A stretch of 64,000 nt of DNA. Origin: Chiloscyllium plagiosum (lineage: Eukaryota). Position 1 is the first letter of the stretch, and the number at the start of each line of letters is the position of its first letter. The position numbers were made by a program, and so were the translations under genes. This document shows positions 3,893 through 62,950 of this stretch, piece by piece. Location: the NCBI RefSeq assembly GCF_004010195.1, contig NC_057749.1, positions 19,027,538 to 19,091,537 of the forward strand, written 5' to 3'. Below the pieces are notes generated by a model that searched no databases, was not told where the DNA came from, and worked only from the letters and a program-made list of their open reading frames with translations.

Positions 3893-4200
3893 AGGTTGTA
3901 GATTCATTTGCTGAGCGGATGTATTTTACTGCAGATGTTTCATCACCTCATTAGGTGACATTGTCAGTGCGCTTCTAGTGAAGCATTGGTGGTCTGACCC
4001 GTCTGGTACTTGTGTTTCCGTTTTCTGGGGTACTTTACATACCAGACACACACACATCAGGCTGCACAAACCAGCAACGCTGCACTGACAACGGGACCCA
4101 TCAAGGTAACGAAATGTCTGCAGAAAAACGCGTCAGGTTGGCGAACGAATCTACAACTTCACCCACAACCTAAGCGACAAGCCTTTTCAGAAAAACTCTT
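3893..4200. mobile_element. Fold-back Penelope-like element tail, family P3 (decayed)
   Basis: Imperfect inverted arms 3895-3970 / 4082-4157, each with a decayed hammerhead-like motif; 12-bp TSD AACTT(C/T)TGAGTC at 3881-3892 and 4201-4212. Confidence 0.75.
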
Positions 4201-4769
4201 AACTTTTGAGTCCTAGAGATTGTCACTAGAGCGTCGGGACTTAAATGATGCTTTGCTTTCAGGTCTCGTGAATGGGAGAAGGGAGTCTGAGACAAGACCA
4301 GTGAAGTATCCTTTAACAGCCAACCCCTTGCCCATCACTGCCTCGGAATAGAGGACAGCCTGAGCCCAGGAGGCTGTCCTACTTCTGCCTGCCTGCCATA
4401 AAAGCAGGCCAGTGATGAATTGTGGAATTCCCCACCACAGAAAGTGGCAGAGGCCAAACTGTTGTGTTTTCAAGGAGGAGGCTGAAGGGACCAAGGGAAA
4501 TGGGGTAGAGGTATTGAGCTCAATGATCAGCCGTGATCATATTGATTGGTGGAGCAGGCTTTAGGTGCCTACTGCTGCTCCTACTTCAGTTTATATGAAT
4601 TGAGACCCAGACGTGCCAGTAATTGATCATTTAAGGACCTTAAATGGTAGTAGATCAAGGAGGTCACCCGTGGACCTTGTTACCCAGCATTTCATTGCAG
4701 AGTGACAAATCTATCCAGGGCCAATTACCACAACAAGGAGGAGAAAATCATGCCCTTGATGTTGACTCA

Positions 4770-5112
4770 CTGTTGTAATGTAGGAATGTCATAGCCAATC
4801 ATGCAAAGCAAGCTCCTGCAGAAGTAATTTATCATGTGTTTTGTGATGTTGATTGAGAAATAATTATTGGCCAGGACACAAGAGATACTCCCACGGTCGA
4901 CTTCAAAATAATGTCATAGCATCAGTTAAATTTGCCTGAGGGAGAAAACAGGGCCTTGAGTTCACATCTCATCTGAAAAATGGCACTTCCAATGGTGCAG
5001 CACTTTCTCTGTACTGCAGGTCTAGATTATGTGCTCCAGACTGTAGGATGGATCACAAACACTCAACTATCTGACTCAGAGCTTAGAGTGCTACCCACTG
5101 AGCCACAGCTGC
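4770..5112 (-). mobile_element. Ancient DeuSINE (SacSINE1/AmnSINE1-like)
   Basis: Minus strand reads cagctgtggctcagtgggtagcact (tRNA-like head), then gcagtacagagaaagtgctgcaccattggaagtgccatttttcagatgagatgtgaac, resembling the Deu-domain. Confidence 0.65.
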
Positions 5113-5300
5113 CATCTGAACACCAACTGGCATCTGGTTTTAAGCTTATCGTGTAGATACCTGCAGCTTGGAGAATATAATTATCTGGTTGACAGAAAAA
5201 TACTTTTACCACCTCATAAGGAACAGTAATTGTGGTGTAAGCCAAGATGAGCTGAGTCCCATTGTCCTTCATTGATTTTATCCTGTGACTGTTTGAACCA

Positions 5301-5944
5301 GAGCTTAAAAATGTGTTGCTGGAAAAGCGCAGCAGGTCAGGCAGCATCAAAGGAGAAGGAGAATCGACGTTTCAGGCATACACTGGGGAGACAGGCTGCC
5401 TACTTGCGCAATGTTTCAGAGAATACCTCTGGGACACCCGCACCAACCAACCCAACCGCCCCCATGGCGGAACACTTTAACTTCCCCTCTCACTCCTCCA
5501 AGGACATGCAGGTCTTTGGCCTCCTCCATCGCCAGACCATGGCAACACGACGCCTGGAGGAAGAGCGCCTCATCTTCCGCCTAGGAACCCTCCAATCACA
5601 AGGGATGAATGCAGATTTCTCCAGCTTCCTCATTTCCCCTCCCCCCACCTTTTCTCAGTCCCAACCCTCGGACTCAGCACCTCCTTCTTGACCTGCAATC
5701 CTCTTCCCGACCTCTCCGCACCCCCACACCCCCCACTCCGGCCTAACACCCTCAACTTAACCTCCTTCCACTGATCGCATTCCCAACGCCCCTCCCCAAG
5801 TCCCTCCTCCCTACCTTTTATCTTAGCCTGCTTGGCACACCTTTCTCATTCCTGAAGAAGGGCTTATGCCTGAAATGTCGATTCTCCTGTTCCTTGGATG
5901 CTGCCTGACCTGCTGCGCTTTTCCAGCAACACATTTTTCAGCTC
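5301..5944 (+). mobile_element. 5'-truncated Penelope-like retroelement, family P1: C-terminal GIY-YIG endonuclease fragment plus inverted tail
   Basis: YTGETG...FRE then, after a frameshift, MAEHFN...RRLEEERLIFRLGTLQSQGMN; 80-bp inverted terminal arms 5301-5380 / 5865-5944. Confidence 0.88.
5849..5881 (+). ncRNA. Minimal hammerhead ribozyme-like motif (PLE type; palindrome decayed ACGT>ATGT)
   Basis: TTC-CTGAAGA-A-GGGC ttat GCCT-GAA-ATGT-C-GA. Confidence 0.55.
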
Positions 5945-11279: not shown

Positions 11280-11505
11280 GATAGTAGTCATGATTTGGAG
11301 ATGCCGGTGTTGGACTGGGGTGTACAAAGTTAAAAGTCACACAACACCAGGTTATAGTCCAACAGGTTTAATTGGAAGCATACTAGCTTTCGGAGCGACG
11401 CTCCTTCATGGACAACTACCTGATGAAGGAGCTTCGCTCCGAAAGCTAGTGTGCTTCCAATTAAACATGTTGGACTATAACCTGGTGTTGTGTGACTTTT
11501 AACTT
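11280..11505. mobile_element. Fold-back Penelope-like tail element, family P2
   Basis: 84-bp arms 11326-11409 / 11423-11506 with 3 mismatches; 12-bp TSD TCCCATAAATAC at 11268-11279 and 11506-11517. Confidence 0.88.
11417..11451 (+). ncRNA. Minimal type I hammerhead ribozyme motif, intact core
   Basis: TAC-CTGATGA-A-GGAGC ttc GCTCC-GAA-AGCT-A-GTG: 3-bp helix I (UAC/GUG), 5-bp helix II, palindromic AGCU in place of helix III, CUA triplet. Confidence 0.7.
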
Positions 11506-12244: not shown

Positions 12245-12530
12245 TGTCGGTCCTGGGCCTCCTTCACTGCCGCTCCCTCACCACCGCTCCCTCACCACCA
12301 GATGCCTGGAGGAAGAACGCCTCATCTTCCGCCTCGGAACACTTCAACCCCAGGGCATCAATGTGGACTTCAACAGNNNNNNCAGGCTCTCTGCCTTTAT
12401 TCCTGATGAAGGGCTTTTGCCCGAAAGGTCGATTTTGCTGCTCCTTGGATGCTGCCTGAACTGCTGTGCTCTTCCAGCACCACTAATCCAGAATCTGGTT
12501 TCCAGCATCTGCAGTCATTGTTTTTACCTC
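12245..12530 (+). mobile_element. Penelope-like element 3' end (P1): GIY-YIG C-terminus plus tail, spanning a small gap
   Basis: LEEERLIFRLGTLQPQGINVDF; tail contains TTC-CTGATGA-A-GGGC tttt GCCC-GAA-AGGT-C-GA at 12400-12432. Confidence 0.85.
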
Positions 12531-15500
12531 TTAACTAGGACAGCCAGCCAATCCAGTATTTTGCTTTCCATCAAACCTGCCTCGAGCACTTTGTTACTGC
12601 ATGATTGCTGGTATTTCTTTCTAAAATATTGGTGTCACAAGGCACTACTTGATTTAACTTTTCAGCTTTGTCCAACTAATTTATTGATCGTGTTCAACAT
12701 TTCAGCATCAAATGGTGAGCGTAAAGCAGCTTAATCCAACCACTTTGGTGTAAATGTGCTGCTGTTGCAGAGTTGTGATGCCATCTAGCAGCACCTGTGG
12801 TAATTACACCTATGGTTGGATTAAGATTAGCATTTCATAAACTGATCCTGAGACTGAAACCAAGCACAGCAAGTTTGTCAAGGAGATCTGTGGGTTTGTT
12901 CCCAATGACCAGGTTAGAATGAAATTACTGAAGGTCTCTTAAATCAAGGGTGCACTCAAATTCATCAAAATGCAGTGTTCATATCTCCACAAAAAGGAAG
13001 AAAGCAGAACTCCACAATGTGCTGGTAATGAGAAAGGCAGTTGTGAAGAAACCTGAATCTTTACCACATTGTTTTAGGCATTCATTGGATTTGGGTGTCG
13101 CTGGCCAGGCTAGCATTCATTTCCCACCCTTAATTAGGAAGGTAATGGTGAGTTGTTGCCTTGACCCTGAGCAGTCTGTGTGATATGTGGGCACCCTCTC
13201 AATACTGTTAGGAATAGAGTTCTAGGATTTTAACCCATTGACAGCAACGGAAAGATGGTATAATTTAAGATGGTGTAGGCTTGAAGGGGTAGGGGTGCTG
13301 GGGTTCTCATGCATCTGCAGCTCTTAGTCTTCTCAAGGCTGCAGGTTTGAAACATGCTGTTGGAGGAGAATTGGTAAGTCACTGTACTGTACCTTGTAGA
13401 TGGTACATACTGCTGCCACTGTGCATCGGTGGTGATGGATCTGAATTTGAAGGTGGTGGATAGGATGCCAATAAAGCAGGCTGTTTTATTTTGGATGATA
13501 CGCAGCTTTGAGGGTAACTGGAGCTGCACCCATCCAGGCAAATGGACAATATTGCATCACACGGTTAAGTAACTTTAACATTTAAAAAAAACACAAGGAG
13601 AGCAGGCAGGAGTGTCTCATTACACTATAGGGTCTCCAGCATTATTTTAAAGCTAAAAGCTTGGACAACTCCAACAAAGTGGGGAGAATGGCAGGTGCCT
13701 TTGCTTCATGTTGCCAAACAAAGATGGAATGGACTAGTGTCACTCAGCCAGTGTTCCTAACTGCACTGCTCTAACTGAAAAGTATACCTTTATGCTATAC
13801 TTGCTGAGGAAAAGTATTCCTTTATGCTATACTAGCCTCTGTATCCACTTTTAATATCCCCCTTTAACCAATTCTTTCCAACTAATTTTGTATTTACCTT
13901 CTTTCCCCACCCTAGCACCACTCCATCTTCCACTTTGTCCAGCTTAATTTTGAATCCATCCACATAAACCACTTACTATGCTACTTAAGTAGAAACTTTA
14001 AATGCACAGTTCTCTTTGCATGAGAGCTGAAATGTTCTGAGGGAGTAATTATCAATGCATGCTTACTCTGGCTATTTTGTTTAATAGATGTGGTCAGAAT
14101 CTGAAGACATAATTTTGATTGCACATTTCAAAGGAATGGGTAGTTGAAGGCTGCTTTCCTTTCTCCTCTTCTGTTGCCACCACTAGTGGGATGTCCACTA
14201 GACTCTCCTACATACACCAACCCATTCAATCCCATTACTCAGGCATGCAATTTTAAGTCCAATTCCAAAATTCTCAGGGTTTTTCCACAAATACCACACT
14301 TGAAGTTCACATATTGGTGCATCTTTTGTAAGGCCTGAAGTTCCTCTTTAAGCTTTTTATTAACTGAATTCCAATCATCGATTTTGAGAACCTCTCCCAC
14401 ATCCTGTCACATAAAATCTCAGTTGTTTTTTTTAAAATTATTTTAACTATTTTTCTAATCAATCTGTTCAGATGTTATTACACATCTCAGCAGCAAGTGG
14501 GACTTGAACCCAGGCCTCCTGGTCCAGGCCAGGACTCTACCTCTGTGCCACAAGAGGGCCCCTCAGTGATTTTATTAGCATTACTGGTGCTCATGAGAAA
14601 CTGGATGAAAGTTTTTATTGATTTTAAGAGTTCAGAGTGCTCAAGATCATGTTTCAGTTCCCAGAGATATCCCCAGATCAATTGTGGTTAGATTTTGCCT
14701 ATGGGTTTCTCACATGGATGCTTGGCCACTTACATTGAACAGCATGATCTTGCACAAAATCAACCAGTCCATTGATGGAAAGTGCATCACCACCAGTATT
14801 ACCCCCAAGGGGTTTGAATATTTTAAACCATAAATATGAAATGCACAGTAACTCCATTGAATCTGTCTAATATCTAAAATAAATAAAGACAATCCACGTG
14901 AAACTCCTTTCAAAGATCAGAAAATCTTGGGTTTAGATGGCTGAATACTAGTGAAACACGTTACCTGGTGGAAAACATTGATTTGTATAGTGCTTTTCAT
15001 CTTCACAGACCTTCACAAAGTGCATCAAACAAATTAATTACATTCGAAGTCTGTTTTACAGACAGGAAAATTGTGGACAGCAGACTCCCAAAAACACCAA
15101 TGAGATAAACCAGATACTTTGTCTTGTGAAGCCAAAGTACCTTCATATAATGCCAGGGTATCCTTAAAGACTGCTTGAAAAAAAGAAAACATCTCCATCA
15201 GTATGATATTCCTCGATACAGTGCCGAATTATCTACTTCACTATGTACTTGGATCCTGGGCTGTTAACATTGCACCTGGTTATCTAGTCAGCTTTGTGAC
15301 CTGGAGTAATTAGCATAGCAACTGAAACTATTTAATATGGCTGATCAATAAAAGAAGTACCAATTCAGATAAATGACAACAGTATTAAAAGATGTATTTA
15401 ATTTTTAAAGAAAATTACTGAACATAAATATCATGATTAGACAGGGCAGCTTATTTATCAGAGCAGCAATTTCATAGCTATTTCAAAAGCAAAATACTGC

Positions 15501-16004: not shown

Positions 16005-16250
16005 AGTTGAAACTTTATTGCTGGAACAGCACAGCAGGTCAGGCAGCATCCAGGGAACAGGATCTCCTGTTCCCTGGATGCTGCCTGACCTGCTGTGCTG
16101 TTCCAGCAATAAAGTTTCAACTTTGATCTCCAGCATCTGCAGACCTCACTTTCGAATCTCCTGTTCCCTGGATGCTGCCTGACCTGCTGTGCTGTTCCAG
16201 CAATAAAGTTTCAACTTTGATCTCCAGCATCTGCAGACCTCACTTTCTCC
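16005..16250. mobile_element. P1 tail fold-back with tandem duplication
   Basis: Perfect 58-bp arms 16005-16062 / 16065-16122; identical 92-bp direct repeat 16062-16153 / 16156-16247; 14-bp TSD TGCAATGGAGTCTT at 15991-16004 and 16251-16264. Confidence 0.88.
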
Positions 16251-17704
16251 TGCAATGGAGTCTTCCATTAGCAAATTGCAGAATCAAAATGTGAGACAAA
16301 TTGTTGACCCAAATTATCCAGAATGATAGTGGTGATGGTCCGAAGTTAATAGAGTTTTCAAATTCTTATTCCACTGTGGCAAGTTCTGAGATTGAATTGA
16401 ATTCTGTTCTCAAGCTGGAAAAATTATTCAGTCTAGCCCTACCATAGTTGTACTCTCAGAATCCTATCCATTGACCAAAAAAAATCACATTCTTTCATTT
16501 TCGGCCTTGGGCACATTGTTAAACAGAATGTGACTTGAGCACAGTGTAGGAAAGAGTCAGGAGTGTTTAGTCCTGAAAATCCTCAGCATTGGCTTCAGAC
16601 CTCCTGAGGTCTCATAGCTTCAAACCAAACCGAAAACCACCTGCTGTTTATCACCATGAACTCTTTTATGTCAAATATCACTAATTCTGAATTAATTGAT
16701 GTGGCTTTCTAACTTTTTTCATAACACAAGAAACAGAAGTTGGAATAAGCCATTCCAGCTGTTAGCTTGACTCCCCTTTCAATAAGATTATGGCTGACCT
16801 GATTGTGACCTTAATTCCATTTCCTTCCTTGTCCCCTCCATAATCCTTGACTGACTTGTCAATCAAAATCTATTTAATTCATCCTTGAATATCAGAGTTT
16901 TGGCAATGTGCTTTGGTTGATCAAAAGCTTTCAAGTCATGTTATCAAGCATAAGGAATATTGTTGGCCTTTCAAGCTGCAGGCTGTCAAAAATTGGATCT
17001 CTACTGCCCCTGTCAGTTTGATTTCACTCTCATCCAAATAAGAGTTATCTCATCAGCACATTTGTAGTATTGAATGCATGCATTATGATATATAAGGAAA
17101 ATAGCAGCATGCTGAGTTCTAAACTGATTGAATTTTGGCTTTGGGGGCTGATTTTCCCATTTCTCAGAAATTGCAAGGGAGAACAGCTTCAATGTTTCTG
17201 ATCTCTGCACAATGTCTGGCCCTAACCCTAGCCCTAATCCTCAGCTATGAAAATGCTCTGGTATCTTTTCACTACCTCATGTCCTTTCTTAAGTACAGTG
17301 CTCAATATTCGACCTAATGCTTGAGCTGCTCACCCTGGTTATTGTGGCCATCAGGCCCACTATCTGATGGCTGAATGTATGGGTGCTACATGAAGTGCAC
17401 TTTCAAACATGTCTTAAGTGGTCATTTAGATGAACAGTGTTTGCTTTAGTGCATAAAATTTAATCTACTGTGACTGTATAGATAACGTTGAGTCTCTTAA
17501 ATTGGTTTTGATTATCTGAGGGAATAGGAGAGGAACTTCTTTGATTTTTTTTGTGCCTCTCCCTGGAGAGTACAAGTTTGAAGATGGGAATGGGAAAGAG
17601 TATTTATGTACTGCTGAGGTTTGAAACAGGACTCTGTTCTTCAGTTGTTAAACCAATCATAGCATTTCCTTTTCAAACTCTCAGCCTTATATTTTCTACC
17701 ATAG

Positions 17705-17783
17705 GACCTTTAGAAAAGACTTACAATGATTTCTGGAGAATGGTATGGGAACAACATGTCCTTGTTATTGTCATGACCACAAG
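17705..17783 (+). CDS. ptpn9: ptpn9 coding exon: (G)PLEKTYNDFWRMVWEQHVLVIVMTT(R)
   Basis: Acceptor ccatag|GA, donor AG|gtaagt; 79 nt, phase 1 to 2. DFWRMVWEQ and IVMT motifs. Confidence 0.97.
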
Positions 17784-18541
17784 GTAAGTGGGATCACTTC
17801 ATTGAGAAACTATACTTAACACAATGCGTAATGGACTTGGCATGTGTGGTTCTTAAGTGTCAACTTATTAACTACAAAGAAGTGTTGATGCTTTGGCTGT
17901 ATGTTCTAAAAACCTTCAGATTTTACTTATTGGTGACAGTTAAACTGTTTGAAAGTGATCTGATAAATTAAGCATTACAACTTATTTGAAAGTAACTGGT
18001 TTATCATTTGTGCCAGTTCTTTGCCATGAATACTGTGAATGGAATTTAGTTTCCACATTTGTTTTATTCTTAATACATGTGAATAGTAGAGCAAAGAAAG
18101 ATGTATTTAAGTGGAGATTGCACTTATTAAAAAGTGAACACTCCATAGAACAGTGTTTTTTCAAACATTATGTACATTTTTACAATTGCTGTTGGCTTAT
18201 ATGTAGACATATATGTATGTGTAAACAATTCGGAGAGTATAAATGTTCCACCTTGCAGGGTGCTTTTTTTCTTGGATCTTTCTCGTTTCTTGGAGGAGTT
18301 CATGATGATCCTGTCCCCCTGGGGTTGCAGTGACTCTAATGGTGCCTGCTGTATAATAATTGGGTACCAGACACACCTTAAGCCTTGGGATCTTAATCTT
18401 GACTATGCAAGTAATTATGAACTGCACTCTTGCTGTTCCCAGTTTATTGGAGGGTGGGGTCATTTTGAAGTGCGGATTTCAGAGTTGATATGAATGTTTC
18501 CTGCTGCACTGCCCCATCTTTTGAATTGAAGATTAATAATG

Positions 18542-18607
18542 TGGCTCTGTGCATCCCACGTCCTGGCTCTGTGCATCCCACGTCCTGGCTCTGTGCATCC
18601 CACGTCC
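18542..18607. repeat. Minisatellite, 22 bp x 3 perfect copies
   Basis: (TGGCTCTGTGCATCCCACGTCC)3. Confidence 0.95.
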
Positions 18608-19535
18608 ATCCAAGGGTTTGCAGGTTTCTCTTTGTTCCTTGAATGGAGGCCTTTTGGTTGGCTTCCTAGTTATAGAGCTGCATTTTCCAGTGATGACTTA
18701 TATTTGCCTCCATGCCTCAAAAATATACTTCCGTGATGACGATTGTGCTGTCTCCCACACGTACACTGAGCCTTCTGTTCTAACTTGTGACAAAACTTCT
18801 TCACAGTCTAATTAATCAAGTGACCTCACCAGACTTGAGCTTAATGTAGTTGCTGGATTCTTGTGTCTTTCCCTTTCTTTGGTGCCCCAGACAACAGTAG
18901 TTTTATTTCATTCAGATAACCTGCTTTGTCATGTAGAATACAGCAGTCTTGCAGTTCATGCAAATCTTGTCCATTTAAACTACTGCACTTCAACCTCGTC
19001 CTCACAGGAGCCTGTGCCTTCGTCTGTCCTCCTTGGATGAGGTACTGCCTTCAACCTCATTGGCAAAGTTGTATCAGTGAAAAATTCTACAGTTACCTCA
19101 ACAAAGCCATCTTCTAACTTGTTCTTTTATGTTGTGCCCAGGTTTGTACCTGTGGCCTTGATGACTATTAGGTAATTTATCAAACTCCACTAACAACAGT
19201 GGCTCCCAAGTTTCTCATTAAACTGTGTGCATGCACAACCTCAAAGCAGCCAGAAAGATACTGGCAATGCTTTGTTTCATGTTACAGTATAAAGGAAACA
19301 TTGGTGAATAAGCTTCAAAAATATTTACAAGTGTGAAAGTCATTATAATATTTCTTGCATCAGCAACAGAACCAGCAACTCCTTTGGAAAGCAGCATTGT
19401 TGCTTTTCTCTCATTCTGCGTGTTTACTAAATATGATACCAAAGTCATTAACCCTCAAGCAAAAAATTGCCTTCAGTAAGAATTTTCCAATGAGTTTGTC
19501 TTAGAGCAGGACTTCCCAAATATCAGAATTCCAAG

Positions 19536-20640
19536 TAGAACATAGAACAGTACAAGCCCTTCGGCCCAGAATGTTGTGCCGAGCATTTATCTTAATCTAA
19601 GACCAGCCTAACCTACACATCACTCAGTTTACAGCCGTCCATGTGCTTGTCCATCAGTCGCTTAAATGTCCCTCATGTCTCTGTCTCTACTACCACCACT
19701 GGCAGTGCATTCCAAACACCCACCACTCGCTGTGTAAAGAACCTACCTCTGACATCTCCCCTGTACCTTCCTCCAATCACCTTAAAATTATGAACCCTCA
19801 TGACAGCCATTTCTGCCCTGGGGAAAAGTCTCTAGCTATCTAGTCTATCTATGCCTCACACTACCTTGTACATCTCTATCAAGTCACCTCTCTTCCTCCC
19901 CCTCTCCAGTGTGAAAAGCCCTAGCTCACTCAATCTCTCTTCATAAGACAAGCCCTCCAATCCAGGCAGCACCCTGGTAAATCTCCTCTGCACCCCCTCT
20001 AAAGCATCTACATCCTTCCTATAATGAGACAACCAGAACTGGACACAATATTCCAAGTGTGGTCTAACCAGGGTTTTATACAGCTGCAGCAAAACCTCGT
20101 GGCTCTTAAACTCAATCCTCCTGTTAATGAAAGCCAAAATACCAAACGTCTTCTTAACAATCCTATCAACGTGGGTGGCAACTTTGAGGGATCTATGTAC
20201 AAGATCCCGCTGTTCCTCCACACTGCCAAGAATCCTGTCTTTAACCCTTTCAGCATTCTGATTCGACCTTCCAAAATGAAACACCTTGCACTTATCCAGG
20301 TTAAACTCCATTTGGCATTTCTCAGCCCAGCTCTGCATCATGTCAATGTCTAGTTATAGCCTGCAACAGCCCTCGACACTATCTACAACACCACCGATCT
20401 TTGTGTCATCAGCAAACTTACTAACCCACCCTTCCACTTCTTCATTCAAGTCATTTATAAGAACTACAGAGAGTAAAGGCCCAAGAACAAATCCCTGAGG
20501 CACACCACTGGTCACTGACCTTTTGGCGGAATACTTTACATCCCCGACTCGATGTCTTATCTTTCAGCCAGCCAATTCAGTATTCAGACAGTCAAATTTC
20601 CCTGTGTCCCATAGCTCGTAACTTTCTGAATAGGGTTAAA
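19536..20640 (-). mobile_element. CR1-type LINE 3' fragment (subfamily with ...tgttctatgttcta tail)
   Basis: Minus-strand ORF WAEKCQMEFNLDKCKV...LYKTLVRPHLEYCVQFW...; KFADDTKIGG upstream. Confidence 0.93.
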
Positions 20641-21529
20641 ACTTCAGTTTTAAGGTTGCAACCTCCAAGTCACCCATGGCTACCATGAATCTTTAACCAA
20701 GTCAAAACATCTGTGCTCCTGGTTGAATAGGCACCTGCTCTCACAACAGCTCACTCCACCAGCTCCCACAGGTCAAACCTCCACCCTCATGGATGTAATT
20801 CCCTCCCTATTGGCATTGTGGGTCAGGTCACAGCAGGTGGACTGCAGTCGTTCAAGAAGGCAGCTCACTACCACCTTCTCAAGGGCAACTAGAGATGGGC
20901 AATAAATGGGGGCCCCTCCTGTGTCCCCACTACCCTCCAACCCCACCCCTGCTAAATACCGTTCTCGTTCTCTCAAGTCTCATTGAGGGGTTCACAACAA
21001 TTTACAAACCTCAAAACAAGATAATGGAGTGAAATAGTTTGGGAAGTACTGTCTTAGTGGATCTTGAAGATGTGATCAGAGATTTGGCTGTTTCCTCAGA
21101 CTTTATTATCAGTCCCTTTGGACAGACCCACAATTAACTGTTCATGTGTGAAATAAAGTTGCTGCACCTGCTGCTACGAACTAGTCTAAAACCAGCACTA
21201 GCAGTTGAAATGCAAATAAGCATTCCATAGGTATTAAACTGAGGCACCCAAGATCAACATCATCAAGTCTAGACTTCACCTTGGCCAGAAGACAGAAAAG
21301 CAATTCAATAGGATGTTTTCTGTTCTGGCAAATTAATGACACCAGTTTTTCAGATTTTCTGAATTATATTGTTAGTCCATTGAACTGTCATAAATAGATA
21401 ATGTGAGCAGAATAATTTATCTTAATCATTGATCCACTAAGAGTGATAGGAACGGACTCAATGGATTGACAATGGGAGCCACTATACTTCAGAACTCTTG
21501 GTTCATGGAAGCAATGGGGTACAAGTCCC

Positions 21530-21865
21530 ATTACAATGAAAACAAGCCCTTCGGCCCAACAAGTCCACACCAACCCTCCAAAGAGTAACCCACCCAGATC
21601 CATTACCCCCACACCAGCACCTGACACCCACCCCAACCAATGCACCTAGCCTACACATCTCTGAACACTATGGGCAATTTAGTTTGGCCAGTTCACCTAA
21701 CCTGCATACCTTTGGACTGCAGGAGGAAACCGGAATACCCAGAGGGAATCCACATTGACACAGGGAGAATGAGCAAACTCCACACAGTTGGCTGAGGCTG
21801 CAATCGAACCGGGTCCTTAGTGCTGTGAGGCCGCAGTGCTAACCACTGAGCCACCGTTCCTCCCC
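21530..21865 (-). mobile_element. HE1-type V-SINE
   Basis: Same head, V-domain and tail as 9735-10046. Confidence 0.9.
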
Positions 21866-22629
21866 TCCCCCCAAAATGATCATTTGTCATTATTGTAAGA
21901 ACATCTGGTGAGGAAAGGGAGGCTCTGTACTGATGCCATGCTCATCAATGCAAAATAACAGGGCTGGAGTGTGAACAGCACCTATTAAATCATCTTGCTG
22001 TGTATCAGTCAGTACAGGGCACCAGAGAGGAGTTAAAAAGCATCTTCAACTATAATCTCCTTTCAGTTGAATTAAAATCTGTAGATGCCAAAAGAACTCT
22101 ATGTAGCAGTGTCTGCCACTTTATTACTTCACCTTGTCCTGAAAGGTAATAATGTGGAAACGTCCACTCTTTCATTGCCTGCTCCTGTGCTGGGGGTGAC
22201 CAACATTGAGGTATCAGTTCCTTCTTCCCTGGCAATCTACCCACTTTGCTGGAGTTGATATGGGAGAGTGCTTTCATTGCCTACGCCTTTCCGATACCAG
22301 ATTGGGTTGGTGTAGCCAGTTACTGAAAGTGTAGGTCCCTCTTGGTTGACTTGTGTTTTGCTTTTCTTTGTCCACAGGACCAGCTGAGAATTGGTTCAAT
22401 GTCAGAATTTACAGTAGTGAGCTATATCCCTGCCCATGGCCCAGTCAGCATATTCAGATCCTTCTTATGGCAATTGCCTCTATTCAATAAATGTATGAAG
22501 TAATTTAATGGCTGCAAACTGTATCAAACAAAAATGGAAAACTGATGGTGCAATATTTCTTTCTATTCTTTTCCTTTTCTATAATTTTGTCTGCATGTAA
22601 TTTTTTTTATTGCTCTATTACTGCTTTAG

Positions 22630-22780
22630 AATTGACGAGAGTGGCAGGAAAAAATGTGGTCAATACTGGCCTCTGGACCAGAACACTCGGGGAAACTATG
22701 GACTGATTTCTGTCAAAAGCCTGGCAGTAGAAAGCTTTAAACATTATAACAAAACAACACTAGAGATTCAGAATGTAGAG
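22630..22780 (+). CDS. ptpn9: ptpn9 coding exon: (R)IDESGRKKCGQYWPLDQNTRGNYGLISVKSLAVESFKHYNKTTLEIQNVE
   Basis: Acceptor ctttag|A, donor GAG|gtaagg; 151 nt, phase 2 to 0. KCGQYWP motif. Confidence 0.97.
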
Positions 22781-23554
22781 GTAAGGGATCATTACTTTCT
22801 GCTTTATCCCTGTTTAAAAATGCTAACTGAACAGTTGAACTGAATTGGCAATTGAACGATTCTTGAATACTCAAGTCTCAGAGCTGCCTTTCAATCCAAT
22901 GTGCTTACTGTTGGTTGACCTGTCTTAATACTTGCTCCCCTTCGCTTTGACAGAAGGGACTAAGAACTGACTCAACCAGTTTGATTTCATTCAGTGTACA
23001 GTGTTTCTTTGTGGGTATGATAGGATTGATGATGGGTGTTGAGTCTTGAATAAGAAAATCTTGCCGTTTGAGCCAGAACGTTAACAGGACACTTGTGCCA
23101 CTTTCATGTCAGTAATAAAACAGAAGCTGCTGGAAATATCCAGCATGTCTTTATGGAGAGAGAAACAGTGATAGTATTTAAAGCTGATGACCAGCTACTT
23201 GGAGCATTTTCTGTGTTTATTTGACTTACCAGCATCTTTGCTATTTTGTGCACTCATATTTGGTTTTTGAAATTAACCATTTCTCAGGTTCAGTACTAAC
23301 CTTTACTACAGTGAATCATCATTGTAACCTTTCCTTCACTTGTTTTGGGCTAATTGCCTCCAGAGTCCTTGATGTATATTGGGTATTTAAAAAGTATATA
23401 ATCATCATTAGGATTTGAGCATCTCCAGCAAAGCCAGCATTATTGCCCAGCCTAATTGGTTCTTGTGACATAGGAATATAGTCAGCCCCTCAAGTGCTCC
23501 ACCATTCTAGATCACCTCTGATTATCTACCTCAATGCCATTTTTCTACAGCGGG

Positions 23555-23660
23555 CGTGAAGAGTAAGTCGATAAAGTGTGGTGCTGGAAAAAGCACAGTA
23601 GGTCAGGCAGCACATGAGGAACAAGAGAGTTGACGTTTTGGCTTAACCTTTCATCAGGGC
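23555..23660 (-). mobile_element. P1 Penelope-like tail fragment
   Basis: Minus strand reads CTGATGAAAGGTTAAGCCAAAACGTCAAC, a degenerate hammerhead-like motif, followed by tgctgcctgacc. Confidence 0.7.
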
Positions 23661-23789
23661 ATGAAGATCCTCCATGTCAAACCACTATAGTCCGTACAGT
23701 GCAAGCATTCTACCCTGCTGTTAGGATGGGAGTCGCAGACGTTTGACCCATTGCTGGTATATGTCCCAAGTCAAGGTGGCATGTGATGG

Positions 23790-24098
23790 GATTCCCTACA
23801 GTGTGGAAACAGGCCCTTCAGCCCAACAAGTCCGCACCGACCCTCCGAAGAGTAACCCACCCAGACCCATTTCCCTCTGACTAATGCACCTAACACTACG
23901 GGCAATTTAGTGTGGCCAATTCACCTGACCTGCACATCTTTGGACTGTGGGAGGAAACCGGAGCACCCGGAGGAAACCCATGCAGACACGGGGAGAATGT
24001 GCAAACTCCACACAGTCAGTCGCCTGAGGCTGGAATTGAACCTGGGTCCCTGGTGCTGTGAGGCAGCAGTGCTAACCACTGCACCACCGTGCCACCCC
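23790..24098 (-). mobile_element. HE1-type V-SINE
   Basis: Near-consensus full-length copy. Confidence 0.93.
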
Positions 24099-25444
24099 AT
24101 TTCTTTTAAATGGAGTGGTTTGGGAGAATCTGTTTACCTTTATGAAATTCCTCCTGAACACTGGAAGATTAGGATGAATCGCTGTGTATGTGAGCATTGT
24201 GGTCCTGCTGATGTAATAGGTTCACATTAGAGGATCAGTAATGATAGTTTGTCATTGTTTTGAAAGCTGAGTGTTTTCCTTTGTAAAATGGAGTGCAAGC
24301 TGGACATTTAGATGTACTTCTGACCCTGAGATTATTATAAGACTGACTTTGCTCCTGTGGTGCCTCACTATGTCAGTGTGCTGCTGCTAGTGAAACTGAG
24401 CCAGAAATCTCCAAACTCACTGACTTACTAAGTTTATCTGATCTCTTGCTGAGAGGCAGTCAGGATCCCAGAGGTGGAAAATGTGAAAACTGACTCTGGT
24501 TCCCACATCTGATCGCCACCCATTGATTCCTGCGGGAAGTGCCCTGTTTTGTTGTGAATAGATTGTTAACAGTCACTGTCCTGTTAAGCACATAGGCATT
24601 TCACCAGGCATGGTGAAATTAGCTAAAAGAGAGAAGAGCTAGTACTTGTAATGCCACCATAAAATAAATTCTAATTGAAAAGAGGGAATAGATCAAATCT
24701 GCCACAGTCTCTTTGGTATATTCCTGTATGGTTTAAAGCAATTTCATAGCTCGAGAATATTACTTTCTTTCCATATGTCCAATTTAGCATATCAGTCATA
24801 TTTTATTGAATGAGAGAACGCGCTTGTCATATGGCCTACTCCTGGCATTATTTCATATGATTGCAGAGTTTTAAAGAAGTGGATATGTACGCTTACGCAG
24901 AATATCTGAAATGCAACCTAAACTGACTGAAGTGTATCCACAAACAAAGTTGTTTGTGTCCTGGTTATTTGACTGATGGTTTAGTTGTGTGTTGAGTGCA
25001 GCAATCCTGATATGAACTTTATCAGATTATGTTGGTTAGTGCAATTTGTTCAGTTAATTCAAAAACTATAAAGCATTGTGAACTTTTAACAGGAGTATTA
25101 TTAAAAAGATCCACTGGCTTCAATCAAGAGTAGGAATTGTCAGCATGCTAGGGTGTTTGTTTCCACAACTTGTTCTCCCACTGCACTCCAGTCTTTCCAT
25201 TTCTTCTGGGCATTGTTCCCTGGCTCCCAGCTATCCTCTGCTGTCCTCTGAAGTGTCTGCTCATCGCCTGAGTGTTTTGTGCAGTGAGTGCTCACAGGCT
25301 GTGCCACTATGTAAATTATTGCATTTAAGCCTGATCCTGTTGAGTTATTCTGATATCTTGACCCATAAACAAACATTTCAGTACTCACTGCTGCCTTGGC
25401 TAATACTGACTGACTGTGGGTGGAACTTTCAGCCTTGTGTGCCT

Positions 25445-40589: not shown

Positions 40590-40887
40590 GTAGATTCCCT
40601 ACCATGTGGAAGCAGGCCATTCAGCCCATCAAGTCCGCACCAACCCTCCAAAGGGCGTGCCACCCAGACCCACCTCCTCTACCCTATTCCTGTAACCATG
40701 CATTTCTCATGGCTAACCCACGTAGTCTGCACAACCCTGGACACTAACCTGCACGTCTTTGGACTGAGGGAGGAAACCGGAGCACCCAGAGGAAACCCAC
40801 GTGGACACTGGGAGAATGTACAAACTCCACAGTCACCTGAGATTGGAATCGAAGCGGGTCCCTGGTGCTGTGAGGCAGCACTTAACC
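40590..40887 (-). mobile_element. HE1-type V-SINE (diverged, 5'-clipped)
   Basis: V-domain and tail recognisable. Confidence 0.85.
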
Positions 40888-43357
40888 TCACAGTGAACTG
40901 GGCCCAAGTACATTCTGTGTGCAGTGTGACCATCACTGTGGGAGGGGCATCAGAGCAATCCATTCCTTCCCACTGATTTGAGGCCAAGGAAGGATTGTGT
41001 AAAGGGAACCACATAACTGAACCGGGCAGCAGCCATAATTATTTGTCCTGTGTTCTAAGGATTGGGAGCCCAACTCTAAGGGCCATTCATCCATGGAGGA
41101 AAATCAGTTCCAACTTGTAGCTTAACCATAGCTGTACATTTTACAACAAGTGTAAATGGTTACCAGTTAGTAACACAAATTTCAATTATATATCACCCTC
41201 AACAGAGCAAAATATCCCAACAAGAATGCTACCAGACAACATTTAACATTATGCTATATCAGGAGATGTTAGGTCAGATGATCAAATATTTGGTCAAATG
41301 GCTAGGTTTCAAGGAGCTCCCTTAAAGAATGGAAGACGTGCAGAAATTTAGTGAACAATTTCAGAGCTCAGGGCAGAGAAAACTGAAGACATAGCTGCCA
41401 ATGAAGTTGTACAGGAGACCATTCCAGGAACATAGGTTTCCCTTTGAGGCTTGTGTAGCTAGAGATGCATTGAAGAGATTCAGAGAGGAGCAACACTGGA
41501 GTGATATGAGAATGCACATGTTAATGATGTAACCATTCAGTTATTAGACCAGTAGCTAATATAAGTCATTAAGCTCCGAGTGATGAGTGAGGTGACTTGG
41601 TTTGAGCTAGGATGCAACATTGGAGTTTGGGTAAGCTCAGCTTTGCAAAAGGGACAAGGTTGAAGACTGCGCAAGAGGGAATTTGAAGAATATACCAGTA
41701 ACAAAGCTTAGATAATGCAGGTCTCAGTTTCAGTTGGACTGAGATAGATGGGCATATCTTGTCATTACCTGGTGAAGAATGGTTAAGCAGCTTCCGACTG
41801 TTCAGTCTCCTCAGTTTAAGTTCTTTTTAGCACAAGGATATACTGTACTTAATTTAAAGTGTAGCTTTGTTTTACCATACAAAGGAATCAATGAGGAGGA
41901 TAGGAACAGACTCACACCTAAGATCAAGTCAATATTTAGTTTTAGCAAAGCTACTTGGCCTTCTAAATCTCTACTCACAAAGCCCTGCTGTTTCCCCTCA
42001 GCTCTTTAAATATTTTCCGCAAAGTACTTATTCAATTCTCCTTTGAAGATTATCAAATCTACTTCCATTATCCTTTCAGACTGTTGATTCTAGATGGCAA
42101 CAACTTGGTGTTTGAAGAAATCTTTCCTCATGTTACCCCGATTTATTTGCCCATTACTGTAGACTCCATTCCCCGGTTCCCACTTCTCTGTTGGAAATAG
42201 CTTGTTTTTATTTACTCTGTCAAAACTAGTCATGATCTTGAACACCTATACCAAATCTCCTCTTAACTGTCTGTTTTAAAGAGAATAACAGCGACATCTT
42301 CAGTCTCTCCATCTTTGTCAATCCCTGTCTCTTACAATATTCTGACAAACCTTCTGCATGCTGCCTACGGACTTGGAGTGATTATTAAAGTGTGGTGCCC
42401 AGACTTGAACACTTGCACCAATATTTTATAAACGTTTAGCATAATATATTTGCTTTTGTATTCTATTAATAAAGGAACCATACGCATCCCAACTTGTCCT
42501 GCCACATTCAAACTTCTGTGAACATGAACCTACATGTTTTTCTTTTCTCTTTCCCCCCTCCCCCTCCCCCGTGACCCCCACTTTAACATTGTACCATGTG
42601 GTTTATGTTGCATGTCTTTATCCCTCCAATTAAAATATAATGTTCAATACTTCTCTGCATTCAATTCATATTTCAAAGGGATCTGTCCATTTCATCAAAC
42701 TGTATACTTCCTGAGTTTGTTCTTGTCCTCATTGTTGCTACATTTGAATTTCACATCAAATACAAACTTTGAAATAATGCTATACATATAAATGCCAGTC
42801 AGGTTATTAACATACATCAAAAAGCACAGTATTTCTAATTTCAAACCTGGGGCTCCAGCACTGTAACCCTGTCCCTAACCTGCAAAACAACCTTTCACCT
42901 CTATTCTCTGCTTCGGTCCTTTGCTCAATTTGGTATTCATGTTGCCATTGTCATTTTGATCCAGTGGATTTGAACTTTGCTAGCAAGTCTATTATTTAGT
43001 ACGTTGTCAAGTTTCTTTCAAAATTCCATGTATACAAATTGCACAATATGGTCCTCTTCAACCCTTTCTGTTACTTCTAAGTATACTGGGCTCGGTGGGA
43101 CAGATCTGGATTTGGGTTTGGAGAGAATGCTGAGGAGTAATTTCTCACAGTAGACCTGTAGATAAAGGGCTGTTATAAATATCAAACATATGTACAGTTG
43201 CAGCTTGAAATGTGCTCTATTGTTCTTGTCAGATTTATTTGATAGAAATTCACTGTATAAATGTAAATTTTTGCTAAATTCAGTGACTGGCTAATTGGGC
43301 TTGTTAAATGTGTTTTGTTCAGACCCATACTTATGCTGCTTATTTTTAACTCTCCAG

Positions 43358-43548
43358 GCACTCTGTGCACTTTGGATATATGCCTTTCTCAGCTGGAAGA
43401 TGTGGGTACTCTCAACATATACCAAACCGTCCGAAGGATGCGAACGCAACGAGCCTTCAGCATCCAGACTCCTGACCAGTACTACTTCTGTTACACAGCA
43501 ATTATCGAGCATGCTCAGAGGAAAAACCTACTGTCAGCCAATCATTAA
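43358..43548 (+). CDS. ptpn9: ptpn9 last coding exon: (G)TLCTLDICLSQLEDVGTLNIYQTVRRMRTQRAFSIQTPDQYYFCYTAIIEHAQRKNLLSANH*
   Basis: Acceptor tctccag|GC completes the Gly codon; Q-loop QTPDQY; TAA stop at 43546-43548. Confidence 0.97.
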
Positions 43549-58718: not shown

Positions 58719-59387
58719 TAAGAAATGGAAATATATAGTTTATACAGTTGTCATGATATGGAATGCAGTACCTCAATTAAAGTTCAAATCCAGCATGAAC
58801 TGTTTCAGTGGATTTTTCTGGGTTAATTTACTGTTTGAAAACAGATTCACCTGATTTGACATTTCATTGACAGCCTGAAACAGGAGACCAACAGTCACAA
58901 AAAATAGAAACATTAGTTGAGATGGAAGGCAGAGGTATCTCTGGCAGAAGATCGGCTTATTATGACAAGTGAATCAGCTGCGTCTGCTTAATTTGTTCCT
59001 TGAGTGATGTGCAATTGTGATTGAATACATTGTGTCCAACTCCTGATTTAGTTTGTTTCAGATCACAGCCATTGCTATCTCCTGGGTATGCCTATGAGAA
59101 CATTTGTGTCTATCTGTTCATTATTAAATACTGGAAAGGTCAGACCTTAGAGTGAAACCTGACTTGATAGATCATTTATTCTTATTATTTATCATAGAGG
59201 TCAGTCACTGAACATATCCTTAAAGATCTTCAAATGTACCTTTATCAAAAATAAATAAGTTTATTACATGAAAGGACGGACTATTTCACACTGTACAAGA
59301 GCTACTGGACTAATCTCATTAAAGCCATCAGAAAGATTCAACCTTTTTATCACTGCAATACCCTCATAGATACTTCAGCCTCCGTGC

Positions 59388-59890
59388 AGTCATAGAGATG
59401 TACAGCATGGAATCAGACCCTTCGGTCCAACCCGTCCATGCTGACCAGATATCCCAACCCAATCTAGTCCCACCTGCTAGCACCATATCCCTCCAAACCC
59501 TTCTTATTCATATACCCATCCAAATGCCTCTTAAATGTTGCAATTGTACCAGCCTCCACCATATCCTCTGGTAGCTCATTCCATACACGTACCACCCTCT
59601 GCGTGAAAAAGTTGCCCCTTAGGTCTTTATATCTTTCCCCTCTCGCCCTAAACCTTTTGCCCTCTAGTTCTGGACTCCCCGACCCCAGGGAAAAGACTTG
59701 GCCTATTTACCTTATCCATGCCCCTCATAATTTTGTAAACCTCTATAAGGTCACCCCTCAGCCTCCGACGCTCCAGGGAAAACAGCCCCAGCCTGTTCAG
59801 CCTCTCCCCATAGCTCAGATCCTCCAACCCTGGCAACATCTTTGTAAATCTTTTCTGAACCCTTTCAAGTTTCACAACATCTTTCTGATA
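59388..59890 (-). mobile_element. CR1/HER1-type LINE 3' fragment
   Basis: KDVVKLERVQKRFTKMLPGLEDLSY on the minus strand. Confidence 0.93.
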
Positions 59891-60724
59891 GACAATTCTG
59901 GTATCCTTCCTATCTCTACGTGAAAGCTTCTTAGTCTGGTGGCATGAGTACAGTTCTCCTGATAGAAATTGCTGCACATTCATTCAATTATGTTTTCTTC
60001 AGTTCATGCCTCTCACTGAGACCTTTAAAAGTGCTAACTCAGCTGAATTATTCCTTAACATGGGTTTTCTTTACACTTGTGTTCAATAGAATGGTTTTCT
60101 TCCTGATACCTCAAAAGTCTTCTGCTTCTGGAGCTTTCATCTTATTGATCCAAGATCTCAGGACTTCTTCCCAGAGACACCAGAGGTAACGGTGTAGGAG
60201 TGGGGAGAGAGCCGATTCCTGGAGGTCCTCTGGCTATGATTAGCTAGAAGCAGGCAAGGCCAGTGCCAACCACCAAGAGAACATGTTGGAGGAGGTTGAT
60301 AAGTCAGGCTACAAGAGGGAATAGTTCACCCTTAGTTCAGGCACAGAGGATGCCACTTGTAACTTTGGAGGCAAGGAGGCAGGTTCTGAACATGGTAGGA
60401 GCCAAGAGGTTTTTTTTTGAGGGGATAAAGATGACAATTCTAAAGGAGAGAGCGACCAATACCTTTGGTTGAGGTGGAGTGGAGATTGGTTGGCAATTTG
60501 GTGGGAATAGGGTGGAGAGAGCAGGAAGTTAATCCCATGCACAACATGAGCTCAGGGAGAGCATGAAGGAAGATAGAGAAACTAAAGAAAAATACAAGTT
60601 CATGACCTGAGTAGGTGAAAACTTCAGGTGAATTGAACCCATTGAAACTGGAAGCGAGGGATATGGCAGAGGCAACTATTTAGATTGTCTAAATCTTAGC
60701 GACTAAAGTCCAGTGTCTCAGAAA

Positions 60725-62950
60725 TCAGCACAGCGTGTCTGCAGCAGTAAAAAACAACCACCTAACTATTCTAATCCCAATTTCCAGCACTTGGCCTTGT
60801 GTGCTTGGTAGTGTTGGAAAATGGGATGAGAGTCTAAATACTACTTCAATGTCGTGGGTTTCTGCCTCAACCACCCTTGCAAGCAGTGAATTCCAGATTC
60901 CCACCTTGAAAAAGTTTTTGTTATGCACACCAAGGTCCCTCTGATCCTCGGTGCTTCCCAGGGTCCTACTGTTCATCATAGATCCTCGTGTCATCATTGT
61001 CCTGCCCAAGTGCATTACCTCACATTTATCCAGATCGAATTCTATATGTCACTGATCAGCCCCACCTGACCAGCTTGTAATTAAGGCTAGCCTCTTCACA
61101 ACTTACCTTACCATCAATTTTCGCACCATTTGCAAACTTACTGAACAGCCCTCCTACATTCAAGTCAAACTCATTTACCTAAACTACAAACATGAGCTCT
61201 CCCCCCGCCCAAATCATGACCCCTGTAGGACCCCATTGGATATAGACTTGCAACTGGAAAAACATTCCTCAACCATCACCCTCAGTGTCACTGAGCCAAT
61301 TGTGGATCTCATTTGCTAAATTTCCTTGGATCACACCTTGGCTATCAGTCTCTCATGTTAGGCCTTACCAAACACCTTGCTGAAGTCCAAGTAGACTACA
61401 TTGAAACCATTGCCCTCATCTACACACCTGGATACACCTCTTCGAAAAATTCAGTCAAATTGATCGGACGTTACTTCCCCTTAACAAAACTATACTGATT
61501 GTTCTTCATTAATCCCTACTTCTCCAGATGCAGATTAATTCTATGCCTCAGAATTGCTTCCAATAGTGTCCCAACTGGAGGTTAGACTGATTTAGCCTGT
61601 AGTTTCCTAGTTTATCCCTTGCTCCCATGTCGAATAACGATAGTACGTTGCCTGTCCTCCAGTCCTCTAGCTTTTCTCCTGTGGTCAGAGAGAAATTGAA
61701 AAGTTTTGCAAGCACCACTGCTTTTCCTCCCTTGCCTCAATTAACAACCTGGGATACATTCCACCTGGCCCAGGAGTTTTATCTAATTTAATCTGCCAGA
61801 CACTCAGAAGCTCTTCTCTGTGTTAATTTCTTTAATTCTCTCAAAGACCTTCTCCCTAATTTCCATATCCATATCATCCCTCTCACTAATGAAAACTGAC
61901 TCAAAGTATCCATTTAGAATCCTACCTACCTCCTCTGGCTCCACGATCAAATTTCTGCTGTGCTCCTCAGTATCATTTTACACTTAATGTATCTTAAAAA
62001 CAGCTCAGGATTTTCCTTTATTCTGTCACGATCCTTTCACACCCAACTCTCTGAATCTCCCTTTTCAAGTTCCCTCTTGCATATTCTATACTCCTCTGGG
62101 ACTTCTACTGTTTTCAGCCCTCAGTATCCACCATCTGCCTCCCAATTTCTCTTAATCCAACGCTGGACATCCCTCGATATCCAGGATGCCTTTTAAGAAT
62201 TCCACTCCCTTTCACATCTTGACTACTCCAGTTAACGTTGGGAAAGATGAACTCCCCAACTGTAACCATCTAGTTACTTCTATACATCTGCACTGTGCCT
62301 ACATATTTGCTGTTCTATTTCTCTCAGGCTATTAGGGGCACTGTAGTACACTCCCAGCAATGTAATTGGTCTGTTTTTGGTTTTTAAGTTCTATCCATAT
62401 GGCTTCATTTGAGGATCTGCCTAAAATGTCATCCCTCCTTACTGCTGTAATTGATTCTCTGATCAAAACTGCAACATCTCCTCTTCTTTTTCCTGCTTCC
62501 CTGTCTCTCCTGAAGACCTTCTATTCTGGAATATAGAGCTGCCAATCTTGTCCCCTTCACAATCATGTCTCGTTAACAGGAATTACACCACTACCTCATG
62601 TTTTAATTTGTGCCCTCAACTTATCTGTCTTGTTCATGAGGCTCTTGGAATTAAAGTAGATGCTTTGACTCACTTGTTGGGAATCTTCTCATTTTGGTTG
62701 TACATCTCCCACCTGCTGAACATTCTCTGGATCACATTCCCTGCCAATTTAGTTTAAATGTGGAGGAGCCAGTGTTGGACTGGGGTGGACAAAGTTAAGT
62801 CACACAACACCCGGTTATAGTCTAACAGGTTTATTTGGAAGCACTAGTTTTCGGAGCACCGCTCCTTTGTCAGTTACCTGATGAACCAAATAAACCTGTT
62901 GGACTATAATCTGGTGTCGTGTGATTTTTAATTTAGTTTAAACCCTACCC
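60725..62950 (-). mobile_element. Old, degraded longer CR1-type LINE
   Basis: Decayed RT motifs on the minus strand (tttgcaaatggtgc, ctacttggacttcagcaagg, ggactggaggacaggcaacgt). Confidence 0.7.
62759..62929. mobile_element. P2 fold-back tail element with deleted right-arm ribozyme core
   Basis: Inverted arms ttatagtctaacaggtttatttgg / ccaaataaacctgttggactataa; 13-bp TSD AATTTAGTTTAAA at 62746-62758 and 62930-62942. Confidence 0.85.

Follow-up and report, generated by a model that had tools for sequence, protein, structure and literature searches.

A 64,000-nucleotide stretch of the genome of the shark Chiloscyllium plagiosum (RefSeq assembly GCF_004010195.1, contig NC_057749.1, positions 19,027,538 to 19,091,537; hereafter the window, with positions counted from its first letter) contains the orthologue of the phosphatase gene ptpn9 and, in and around it, copies of three repeat families that we call P1, P2 and P3. 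Each family appears to be built on one module, in which a tail of about 80-130 nt follows a minimal type I hammerhead motif. The three families are very probably the 3' ends of three endonuclease-bearing lineages of Penelope-like elements (PLEs), and many genomic copies of P1 and P2 are discrete units of ribozyme plus tail rather than random truncations. The copies in the window itself are nearly all decayed or dead and lie passively in and around ptpn9.

Hammerhead motifs and repeat copies at the ptpn9 locus

The motif was sought with a descriptor of our own, which requires CTGANGA, zero or one unpaired base, a helix II of at least 4 bp and then GAA. Five sites in the window answer to it, at 5852 and 12403 in P1 copies, at 11420 and 38271 in P2 copies, and at 54812, where 0.44 would be expected (mean of 200 first-order Markov simulations, standard deviation 0.70, maximum 3); the site at 54812 is likely due to chance. 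The bare pattern CTGANGA...GAAA is uninformative, with 11 occurrences against 6.5 expected. At the four P1 and P2 sites, all on the plus strand, the layout is the one that a first-pass annotation of the sequence had described, namely helix I, CTGANGA, one unpaired base, helix II, GAA, the tetramer A-NN-T, H and the returning strand of helix I. Helix II is GGGC/GCCC in P1, GGAGC/GCTCC in P2 and GTCACC/GGTGAC in P3, the unpaired base between A9 and position 10.1 is A in P1 and P2 and T in P3, and the closing pair G10.1-C11.1 is found in all three families. The tetramer at 15.2-16.2 is palindromic at the family level, where it switches as proposed between ACGT (P1 and P3) and AGCT (P2), but the palindrome has been lost at 5852 and 12403 in P1. 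At 5852, 12403, 11420 and 38271 the core boxes CUGANGA and GAAA are present, and CUGANGA is missing from both P3 copies of the window; only the P2 motifs at 11420 and 38271 possess every defining feature.

One P1 copy is a 5'-truncated copy of sub-family P1b at 5421..5940 (+), in which a frameshifted remnant of a GIY-YIG endonuclease (about 5381-5640) and an untranslated stretch precede the hammerhead (5852-5879, +), whose core is intact and whose tetramer is ATGT; the tail is of the short form. It stands head-to-head with an inverted partial P1b copy at 5307..5380 (-) that begins within helix II. A second 5'-truncated copy, of sub-family P1a, lies at 12273..12534 (+) and carries the C-terminal remnant of the endonuclease (12273-12376, +), a gap of six N, the hammerhead (12403-12430, +; tetramer AGGT) and a long-form tail. 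At 16005..16250 is a triple insert of P1b tails without the ribozyme core, composed of a minus unit (15996-16062) and two plus units (16063-16151 and 16152-16245) and flanked by a 14-bp target-site duplication (TSD), TGCAATGGAGTCTT, at 15991-16004 and 16251-16264. Two further P1 copies, at 23573..23658 (-) and 25643..25758 (-), had been listed with the other P1 motifs and proved to be decayed, the first with AAA instead of GAA at about 23657 and the second with its CTGA box gone at about 25757.

Among the P2 copies, a head-to-head fold-back with its tails outward occupies 11280..11505 (minus arm 11288-11409, plus arm 11412-11505), with all descriptor features present in the plus-arm hammerhead (11420-11448, +) and a 12-bp TSD, TCCCATAAATAC, at 11268-11279 and 11506-11517. 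An inverted partial copy at 25960..26298 consists of a minus piece (25960-26081) that begins in helix II and abuts a piece of the P2 untranslated region (26091-26298, +). A tail-only fragment of the long-tail form (37429..37526, +) is bracketed by a 9-bp TSD, AGAGGCATG, at 37420-37428 and 37527-37535, and a short unit with a short-form tail (38246..38360, +) includes a hammerhead with all descriptor features (38271-38299, +) and an imperfect flanking repeat of about 11 bp that was seen by eye. A second fold-back lies at 62759..62929, with the core CTGACAA in its minus arm (62758-62873), an internally deleted plus arm and a 13-bp TSD, AATTTAGTTTAAA, at 62746-62758 and 62930-62942. P3 is represented by one head-to-head pair. 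Its minus arm (3884..4018, -), delimited by blastn against genomic P3 copies, has a short-form 3' end and a hammerhead-like motif at 3931-3972 (-) that has lost G8, as seen in the sequence and in an alignment of 26 copies; its plus arm (4075..4193, +) is of the long-tail form and has a motif at 4082-4121 (+) with a decayed helix II. Both P3 motifs had been taken for CTGANGA and in fact read CTGACAA. Runs of N occur in the window at 12377-12382, 26550-26621 and 56738-57348, and also in 9 of the first 50 genomic loci that we inspected, often beside PLE coding remnants.

The host gene, on the plus strand at 17545..43545, was recognized by the Pfam domain Y_phosphatase in a scan of 300 of the 302 open frames of at least 60 amino acids. 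Exons of the phosphatase domain lie in open frames at 17545-17784, 22601-22840, 31520-31735 and 43267-43545 (all +), and their best match among solved structures is PTPN9 itself (E about 3e-27, against 6e-18 for the next phosphatase). The first-pass annotation had the inserts densely populating ptpn9 introns. The identity of the gene is borne out, but the last phosphatase exon was found at about 43.5 kb, so the fold-back at 62.8 kb is probably not intronic. The window also contains five reverse-transcriptase (RVT_1) frame fragments, at 20357-20563 (-), 28497-28844 (-), 32042-32269 (+), 36308-37082 (+) and 54802-55224 (+), which belong to other retroelement remnants.

The abundance of the motif becomes apparent at the scale of the genome. 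A genome-wide descriptor (CTGANGANGN{6,20}CGAAANNTH) gives 114,890 forward and 114,572 reverse matches, 229,462 in 3.56 Gb or about one per 15.5 kb, where its reversed control gives 605 and 625 (1,230 in all); among the first 100 matches listed, nearly all belong to P1 sub-families, to P2 or to P3-like sequences. With up to two mismatches, a P1 30-mer occurs 49,432 times on the forward and 49,148 times on the reverse strand and a P2 32-mer 30,898 and 30,704 times, with no match to either reversed control, which puts P1 and P2 together at roughly 160,000 copies. For closer inspection we used samples of genomic loci that are small and come mostly from one chromosome. In 267 kb of these loci and the window, 88 of 91 descriptor matches have a helix II with at least three contiguous pairs, and the helix III tetramer is AGCT in 41, ACGT in 40 and decayed in 10. 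The motifs are thus real, far above chance and of an already known kind. The word depth of contigs rises about 50-fold across the 130-bp ribozyme and tail unit of P1, and 31-letter words of P1 (from L064:340-960) are present in sequencing runs under four organism codes (A-D); the P1 family is therefore common to related species.

Probable Penelope ancestry and the two classes of 3' ends

The assignment of the three families to PLEs rests on what lies upstream of the motif, where each family has the remnant of a GIY-YIG reading frame, either in the window or in longer genomic copies. In P1, for which a link to GIY-YIG coding remnants had been proposed and is confirmed, window positions 5251-5688 match a 486-amino-acid shark protein, P0001, at E 4e-21, and a fragment from locus L066 matches it at E 9.9e-47. 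The Pfam matches of P0001 are themselves weak (GIY-YIG 21.7 bits at a cut-off of 22.6; RVT_1 E 0.0077), and the evidence for a reverse transcriptase comes from P0001, with P2 and P3 linked through their endonuclease frames. P2 has 530 nt of non-coding sequence immediately upstream of its motif, and the copies that extend further carry a frame with a GIY...YIG pattern, which matches the GIY-YIG region of protein P0003 at E 1e-13 (L091:754-1098). The untranslated region between the P2 endonuclease stop and the ribozyme (L013, L091-L094) measures about 600 nt and has a CA-rich, microsatellite-like start. Longer P3 copies have a GIY-YIG-type frame about 60-100 nt upstream of the motif, for which E is 2e-7 against the P2 frame and 0.003 against P0003. 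The named proteins nearest the P1 frame are those of Chiloscyllium punctatum, Mobula and Hypanus, that is of sharks and rays, in agreement with the shark host that had been guessed from the sequence.

These frames also change the way in which the families were first described. They are not unrelated, as had been stated, in that the endonuclease frames of P3 and P2 are homologous. Nor do they look like non-coding derivatives of PLEs, since the same sub-family variants are found in long and short copies. An origin of P2 and P3 as miniature inverted-repeat transposable elements (MITEs) of DNA transposons had been named as the outcome that would overturn the proposal, and it is refuted by the GIY-YIG-type frames upstream of the ribozyme in their longer copies. 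The more general proposal of PLE tails with minimal type I hammerhead motifs holds, with the published features of PLE hammerheads present in the shark.

Several results weigh against this assignment. Pfam did not find the GIY-YIG domain directly in 11 fragment translations (9 + 2), and a protein search with the P3 frame gave no match. Neither a full-length element nor a partial tandem was seen among the copies examined, and helix I is 2-3 bp long in the shark families. The Rfam hammerhead models, suggested earlier as a check, match neither the whole window, at gathering score or at E up to 10, nor two 71-nt pieces at E up to 10. Comparison of the P1 fragment with solved structures likewise gave no match.

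A further adverse result concerns covariation within P3, the one family of sufficient age for such a test. It is older than P1 and P2, with 40 scored matches at 79-87% identity to the window arm. Core positions 7-8 of its 26 aligned copies read CG in 6, TG in 6, CA in 11 and TA in 3, so that G8 is kept in 12, and the helix III tetramer is ACGT, ACAT or ATGT. This is the pattern of CpG decay, with the window copies in the CA class that lacks G8; P3 as a whole therefore counts as a hammerhead family, but its members in this window are dead. In the alignment 88% of the cells are paired, against 13-50% when the partners are slid, but the covariation score is no better than that of shuffled alignments, 64 of 500 of which reach it. 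Covariation is not to be expected among dead copies that descend from a single master. Of the 'one co-varying architecture' claimed for the three families, what stands is the comparison between them, in which the helix II sequences differ and all would pair, and it is on this alone that the support for pairing relies. Helices that change between families and keep pairing have already been called typical of these elements (Cervera and de la Pena 2014, PMC4209133).

The 3' ends provide an independent signature. Counting positions from the C of CTGA, 32 of 72 P1 copies end at +75..100, 2 at +101..112 and 38 at +113..136; for P2 the figures are 37, 0 and 25 of 62 copies, and 19 P3 copies end near +77 or near +107. 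No continuation beyond the tail was seen in any of the 72 P1 or 62 P2 copies. Such bimodal 3' ends, about 30-40 bp apart, are the optional-tail signature of PLEs, here in all three families. An optional tail of 30-40 bp is described as unique to PLEs, and its origin has been found in the use of two neighbouring internal sites at which reverse transcription starts (Craig 2021, PMC8557442; Frangieh 2024, PMC11167929). By the published PLE mechanism, the shark copies would have been inserted by target-primed reverse transcription, with synthesis starting inside the tail at either of two sites, giving the two classes, and proceeding toward the 5' end of the RNA.

Predicted cleavage, short units and fold-backs

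By analogy with published PLE hammerheads, cleavage would occur after H17, and only as a dimer or with the protein of the element. Lunse et al. (2017) reportedly worked on dimeric cleavage. Among the rival explanations, the best placed is one that we regard as doubtful but take seriously, namely that the motif does not cleave itself here and is kept as part of a folded RNA that the PLE protein binds before reverse transcription. In biochemical work, catalytic mutants were without effect on insertion in vitro, there was no cleavage without protein, and no reads began or ended at the cut (Frangieh 2024, PMC11167929). The shortness of helix I in the shark families points the same way, and the shark data give no sign of self-cleavage in vivo, in copy starts or in RNA: starts at +25..+35 number 3 of 72 in P1 and 5 of 62 in P2, with no clear excess over neighbouring bins, and no pile of read starts or ends was seen at the predicted site in one RNA run, a single-cell poly(A) library ill suited to such a test, in which reads fall about equally on both strands. 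Cofolding of two copies yields generic duplexes and no double hammerhead, which speaks for neither reading. Against a purely structural role stands the retention of the core bases, of G10.1-C11.1 and of a self-complementary tetramer in three lineages that otherwise cannot be aligned, together with the weak cleavage of published PLE hammerheads as dimers or with protein (PMC4209133, PMC11167929). The triple insert at 16.0 kb also speaks for a cut, in that its unit at 16152 begins exactly at the base after the predicted site and its unit at 16063 no more than 3 nt away from it. At locus L079, too, an arm begins at the predicted cut.

The copies appear to have arisen in three ways, by random truncation in the coding or untranslated region, by termination at a sharp ribozyme edge (P1 and P2), and as head-to-head pairs. 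The second kind is conspicuous in the distribution of 5' ends: starts at -12..+4 account for 39 of the 72 copies of P1 and 27 of the 62 of P2, and for 29 of 47 and 11 of 32, respectively, once the copies used for choosing the loci are set aside. Short P1 copies mostly retain only ATTC or TTC before CTGA and short P2 copies mostly (C)ACAAYCAC, whereas P3 starts are scattered from -20 to -615, as in random truncation. At six P1 loci the start is fixed by TSDs of 9-17 bp, at -1, -2, -4, -5, -5 and -25, the first five falling in the short class; the 5' border is therefore an insertion boundary and not a change of sub-family. When reads of one sequencing run and contigs of two others are compared with locus L064, likeness is lost at 796-797 (-4), 882 and 926-927, and the sequence past these points is diverse. 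The short units are thus discrete units of ribozyme and tail, not random truncations. At L043:1683-1830 a short P1 unit sits inside the hammerhead of a P3 copy, where the flanking repeat includes CTGATGA and the 5' border cannot be fixed.

Variants of the sub-family linker are common to long and short copies, variant a1 occurring in 6 long and 15 short copies and a2 in 3 of each. For this reason the short inserts look like products of coding lineages and not like separate non-coding families, and we take them to be repeat-only copies, of pseudo-LTR (long terminal repeat) size, of those same lineages. Mechanistically, their most likely route would be run-off synthesis on an RNA whose 5' end would precede CUGAUGA by about 4 nt in P1 and 8 nt in P2. 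That these units, which begin with the first bases of helix I, are full-length copies of a small RNA with its 5' end set at the edge of the hammerhead is a tentative suggestion, which we advance knowing that it may well be wrong. If true, hammerhead and tail together would be the smallest template on which the PLE reverse transcriptase can work unaided, and the genome would record, base by base, where a poorly understood enzyme started and stopped in tens of thousands of events. A cap-derived extra G at P2 starts was considered and rejected, most of these G's being the complement of the first C of the opposite fold-back arm.

Somewhat less likely still is that the short units are independent non-autonomous elements, similar to short interspersed elements (SINEs) or retrozymes, with their own transcription and mobilised in trans by PLE proteins. 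Such elements would account for the discrete 5' end and for the very high copy number, and animal non-LTR retrozymes are argued to stem from PLE pseudo-LTRs in a recent preprint (10.64898/2026.07.22.740005). The shared linker variants of long and short copies tell against independence, however, as does the lack of any tandem ribozyme array in the window or the loci; moreover, the nearly equal strands of the RNA reads, which run into unlike flanks, are those of passive read-through.

The short units and tails also occur as fold-backs. Inverted pairs are found in the window at 3.9, 5.3, 11.3, 16.0, 26.0 and 62.8 kb, in all of which the tails point outward and the 5' ends meet centrally. Six TSD-flanked inserts had been claimed. 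Exact TSDs were confirmed for four, at 11268/11506, 15991/16251, 62746/62930 and 37420/37527, with lengths of 9-14 bp, a repeat of at least 9 bp being reached by only 14 of 2000 random position pairs; the repeat of the insert at 38.3 kb is the imperfect one already mentioned, and that of the P3 fold-back is just 6 bp, a length that 500 of 2000 random pairs reach. As a single TSD surrounds the pairs at 11.3 and 62.8 kb and the mixed inverted and tandem insert at 16.0 kb, each of these represents one insertion event. Their geometry fits the cutting and extension of both target strands by the Anolis enzyme, if the shark enzymes behave likewise; either both sides of the target would prime synthesis or the enzyme would switch template. 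An inverted, 5'-truncated copy adjacent to a PLE has been described before (Craig 2021, PMC8557442). The RNA of the insert 11282-11506 is predicted to fold into a near-perfect hairpin (-155 kcal/mol, z = -22), which buries the ribozyme; the fold-backs are therefore by-products and not working ribozyme units. The only tandem in the window (16063-16245) is a repeat of tails without the ribozyme core.

It is most improbable that the fold-backs are MITEs with terminal inverted repeats and only incidental hammerhead words, to which their inverted arms, flanking direct repeats and hairpin might point, given that arm lengths and junction points vary between copies, that TSD length is not fixed (9, 12, 13 and 14 bp), that the outer ends fall in the same two tail classes as those of single copies, and that longer copies run into GIY-YIG frames.

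No Rfam family of any kind reaches its gathering score in the window, and the best matches below it are to hairpins of microRNA type. The best sub-threshold match is to mir-15, at 16011-16116 on both strands with 52.3 bits (gathering score 57.3). It coincides with the head-to-head junction of two P1b tails, so that fold-backs of PLE tails can mimic microRNA precursors. An open frame over the same repeat has a weak zf-CDGSH match in Pfam (E 5.5e-5). At 9032-9196 a palindrome of about 165 nt, probably a fold-back repeat as well, has weak MIR2118 matches on its two strands (35.9 and 31.3 bits; gathering score 85), and a weak P1 tail match lies nearby at 9499-9530.

Comparison with known Penelope-like systems

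The closest parallel is provided by the hammerheads of metazoan PLEs, which lack a real helix III, have a base between 9 and 10.1, the pair G10.1-C11.1 and a palindromic 15.2-16.2 tetramer, occur in several 'consensus families full of covariations' per genome and are mostly solitary, some standing close together in opposite orientation (Cervera and de la Pena 2014, PMC4209133). All of these features hold in the shark families, which have the same type I layout with a tetramer that would permit dimers, the motif downstream of the reverse transcriptase-endonuclease frame, and several families of mostly solitary copies with some close inverted pairs. Besides the host, now a shark, the differences lie in the helices and in number. 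Helix I has 2-3 bp in the shark against a reported 4-5, and helix II of P1 and P2 has 4-5 bp against 7-8 in Schistosoma; the 229,462 descriptor matches in the shark compare with about 4,000 motifs in the coelacanth and about 9,000 in Xenopus (PMC4209133), a rough comparison as the descriptors differ. Among the published counts known to us, the Xenopus figure is the highest for minimal motifs, and retrozymes reach up to 120,000 copies in the axolotl, whose genome measures 32 Gb. The Rfam hammerhead families share the catalytic core words with the shark motifs, which nevertheless give no match to them up to E 10.

It is noteworthy that the density of the motif is very high in this shark genome, and that the three families add cartilaginous-fish lineages to the known link between PLEs and minimal hammerheads. 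We found no published description of them in the literature on PLE hammerheads and on shark and Chiloscyllium Penelope elements, on which the supplements of the 2026 preprint on retrozymes, which samples one cartilaginous fish (10.64898/2026.07.22.740005), may bear. Apart from the copy number, which is remarkable, much of what we report is ordinary repeat annotation. What goes beyond it are the sharp 5' border and the two clean 3' classes, which could serve as natural data on the start and stop of PLE reverse transcription.

Animal non-LTR retrozymes (PMC7229834) resemble the short shark units in being small non-coding units with type I hammerheads that occur alongside PLEs, and the preprint of Li et al. 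(2026) argues that they derive from PLE pseudo-LTRs. Retrozymes form tandem arrays with canonical hammerheads and circular RNAs, whereas the shark window and loci contain no tandem ribozyme array. The pseudo-LTRs of the Penelope elements of Adineta vaga (Arkhipova et al. 2013, PMC3846280) offer a further parallel: they too are discrete units, solo or head-to-head with palindromic junctions, with an optional tail of 31 bp and TSDs of 8-10 bp. The Adineta vaga units are few there, and some lack TSDs; in the shark, where the copies number in the tens of thousands, about one in two is a unit of repeat size, and clear TSDs flank several of them.

With regard to mechanism, a comparison can be made with PAc, the Poseidon element of Anolis carolinensis (PMC11167929), which has been studied biochemically, in contrast to the shark families, known here from their sequence. 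In both, the hammerhead stands at the junction before the stretch in which reverse transcription starts. The reading frame of PAc starts within the CUGAUGA box, whereas the corresponding frame of P1 stops after 17 codons. The two adjacent internal start sites of PAc, with its optional tail of 30-40 bp, match the 3' classes of the shark copies, and the cutting and extension of both target strands by its enzyme fits their head-to-head pairs.

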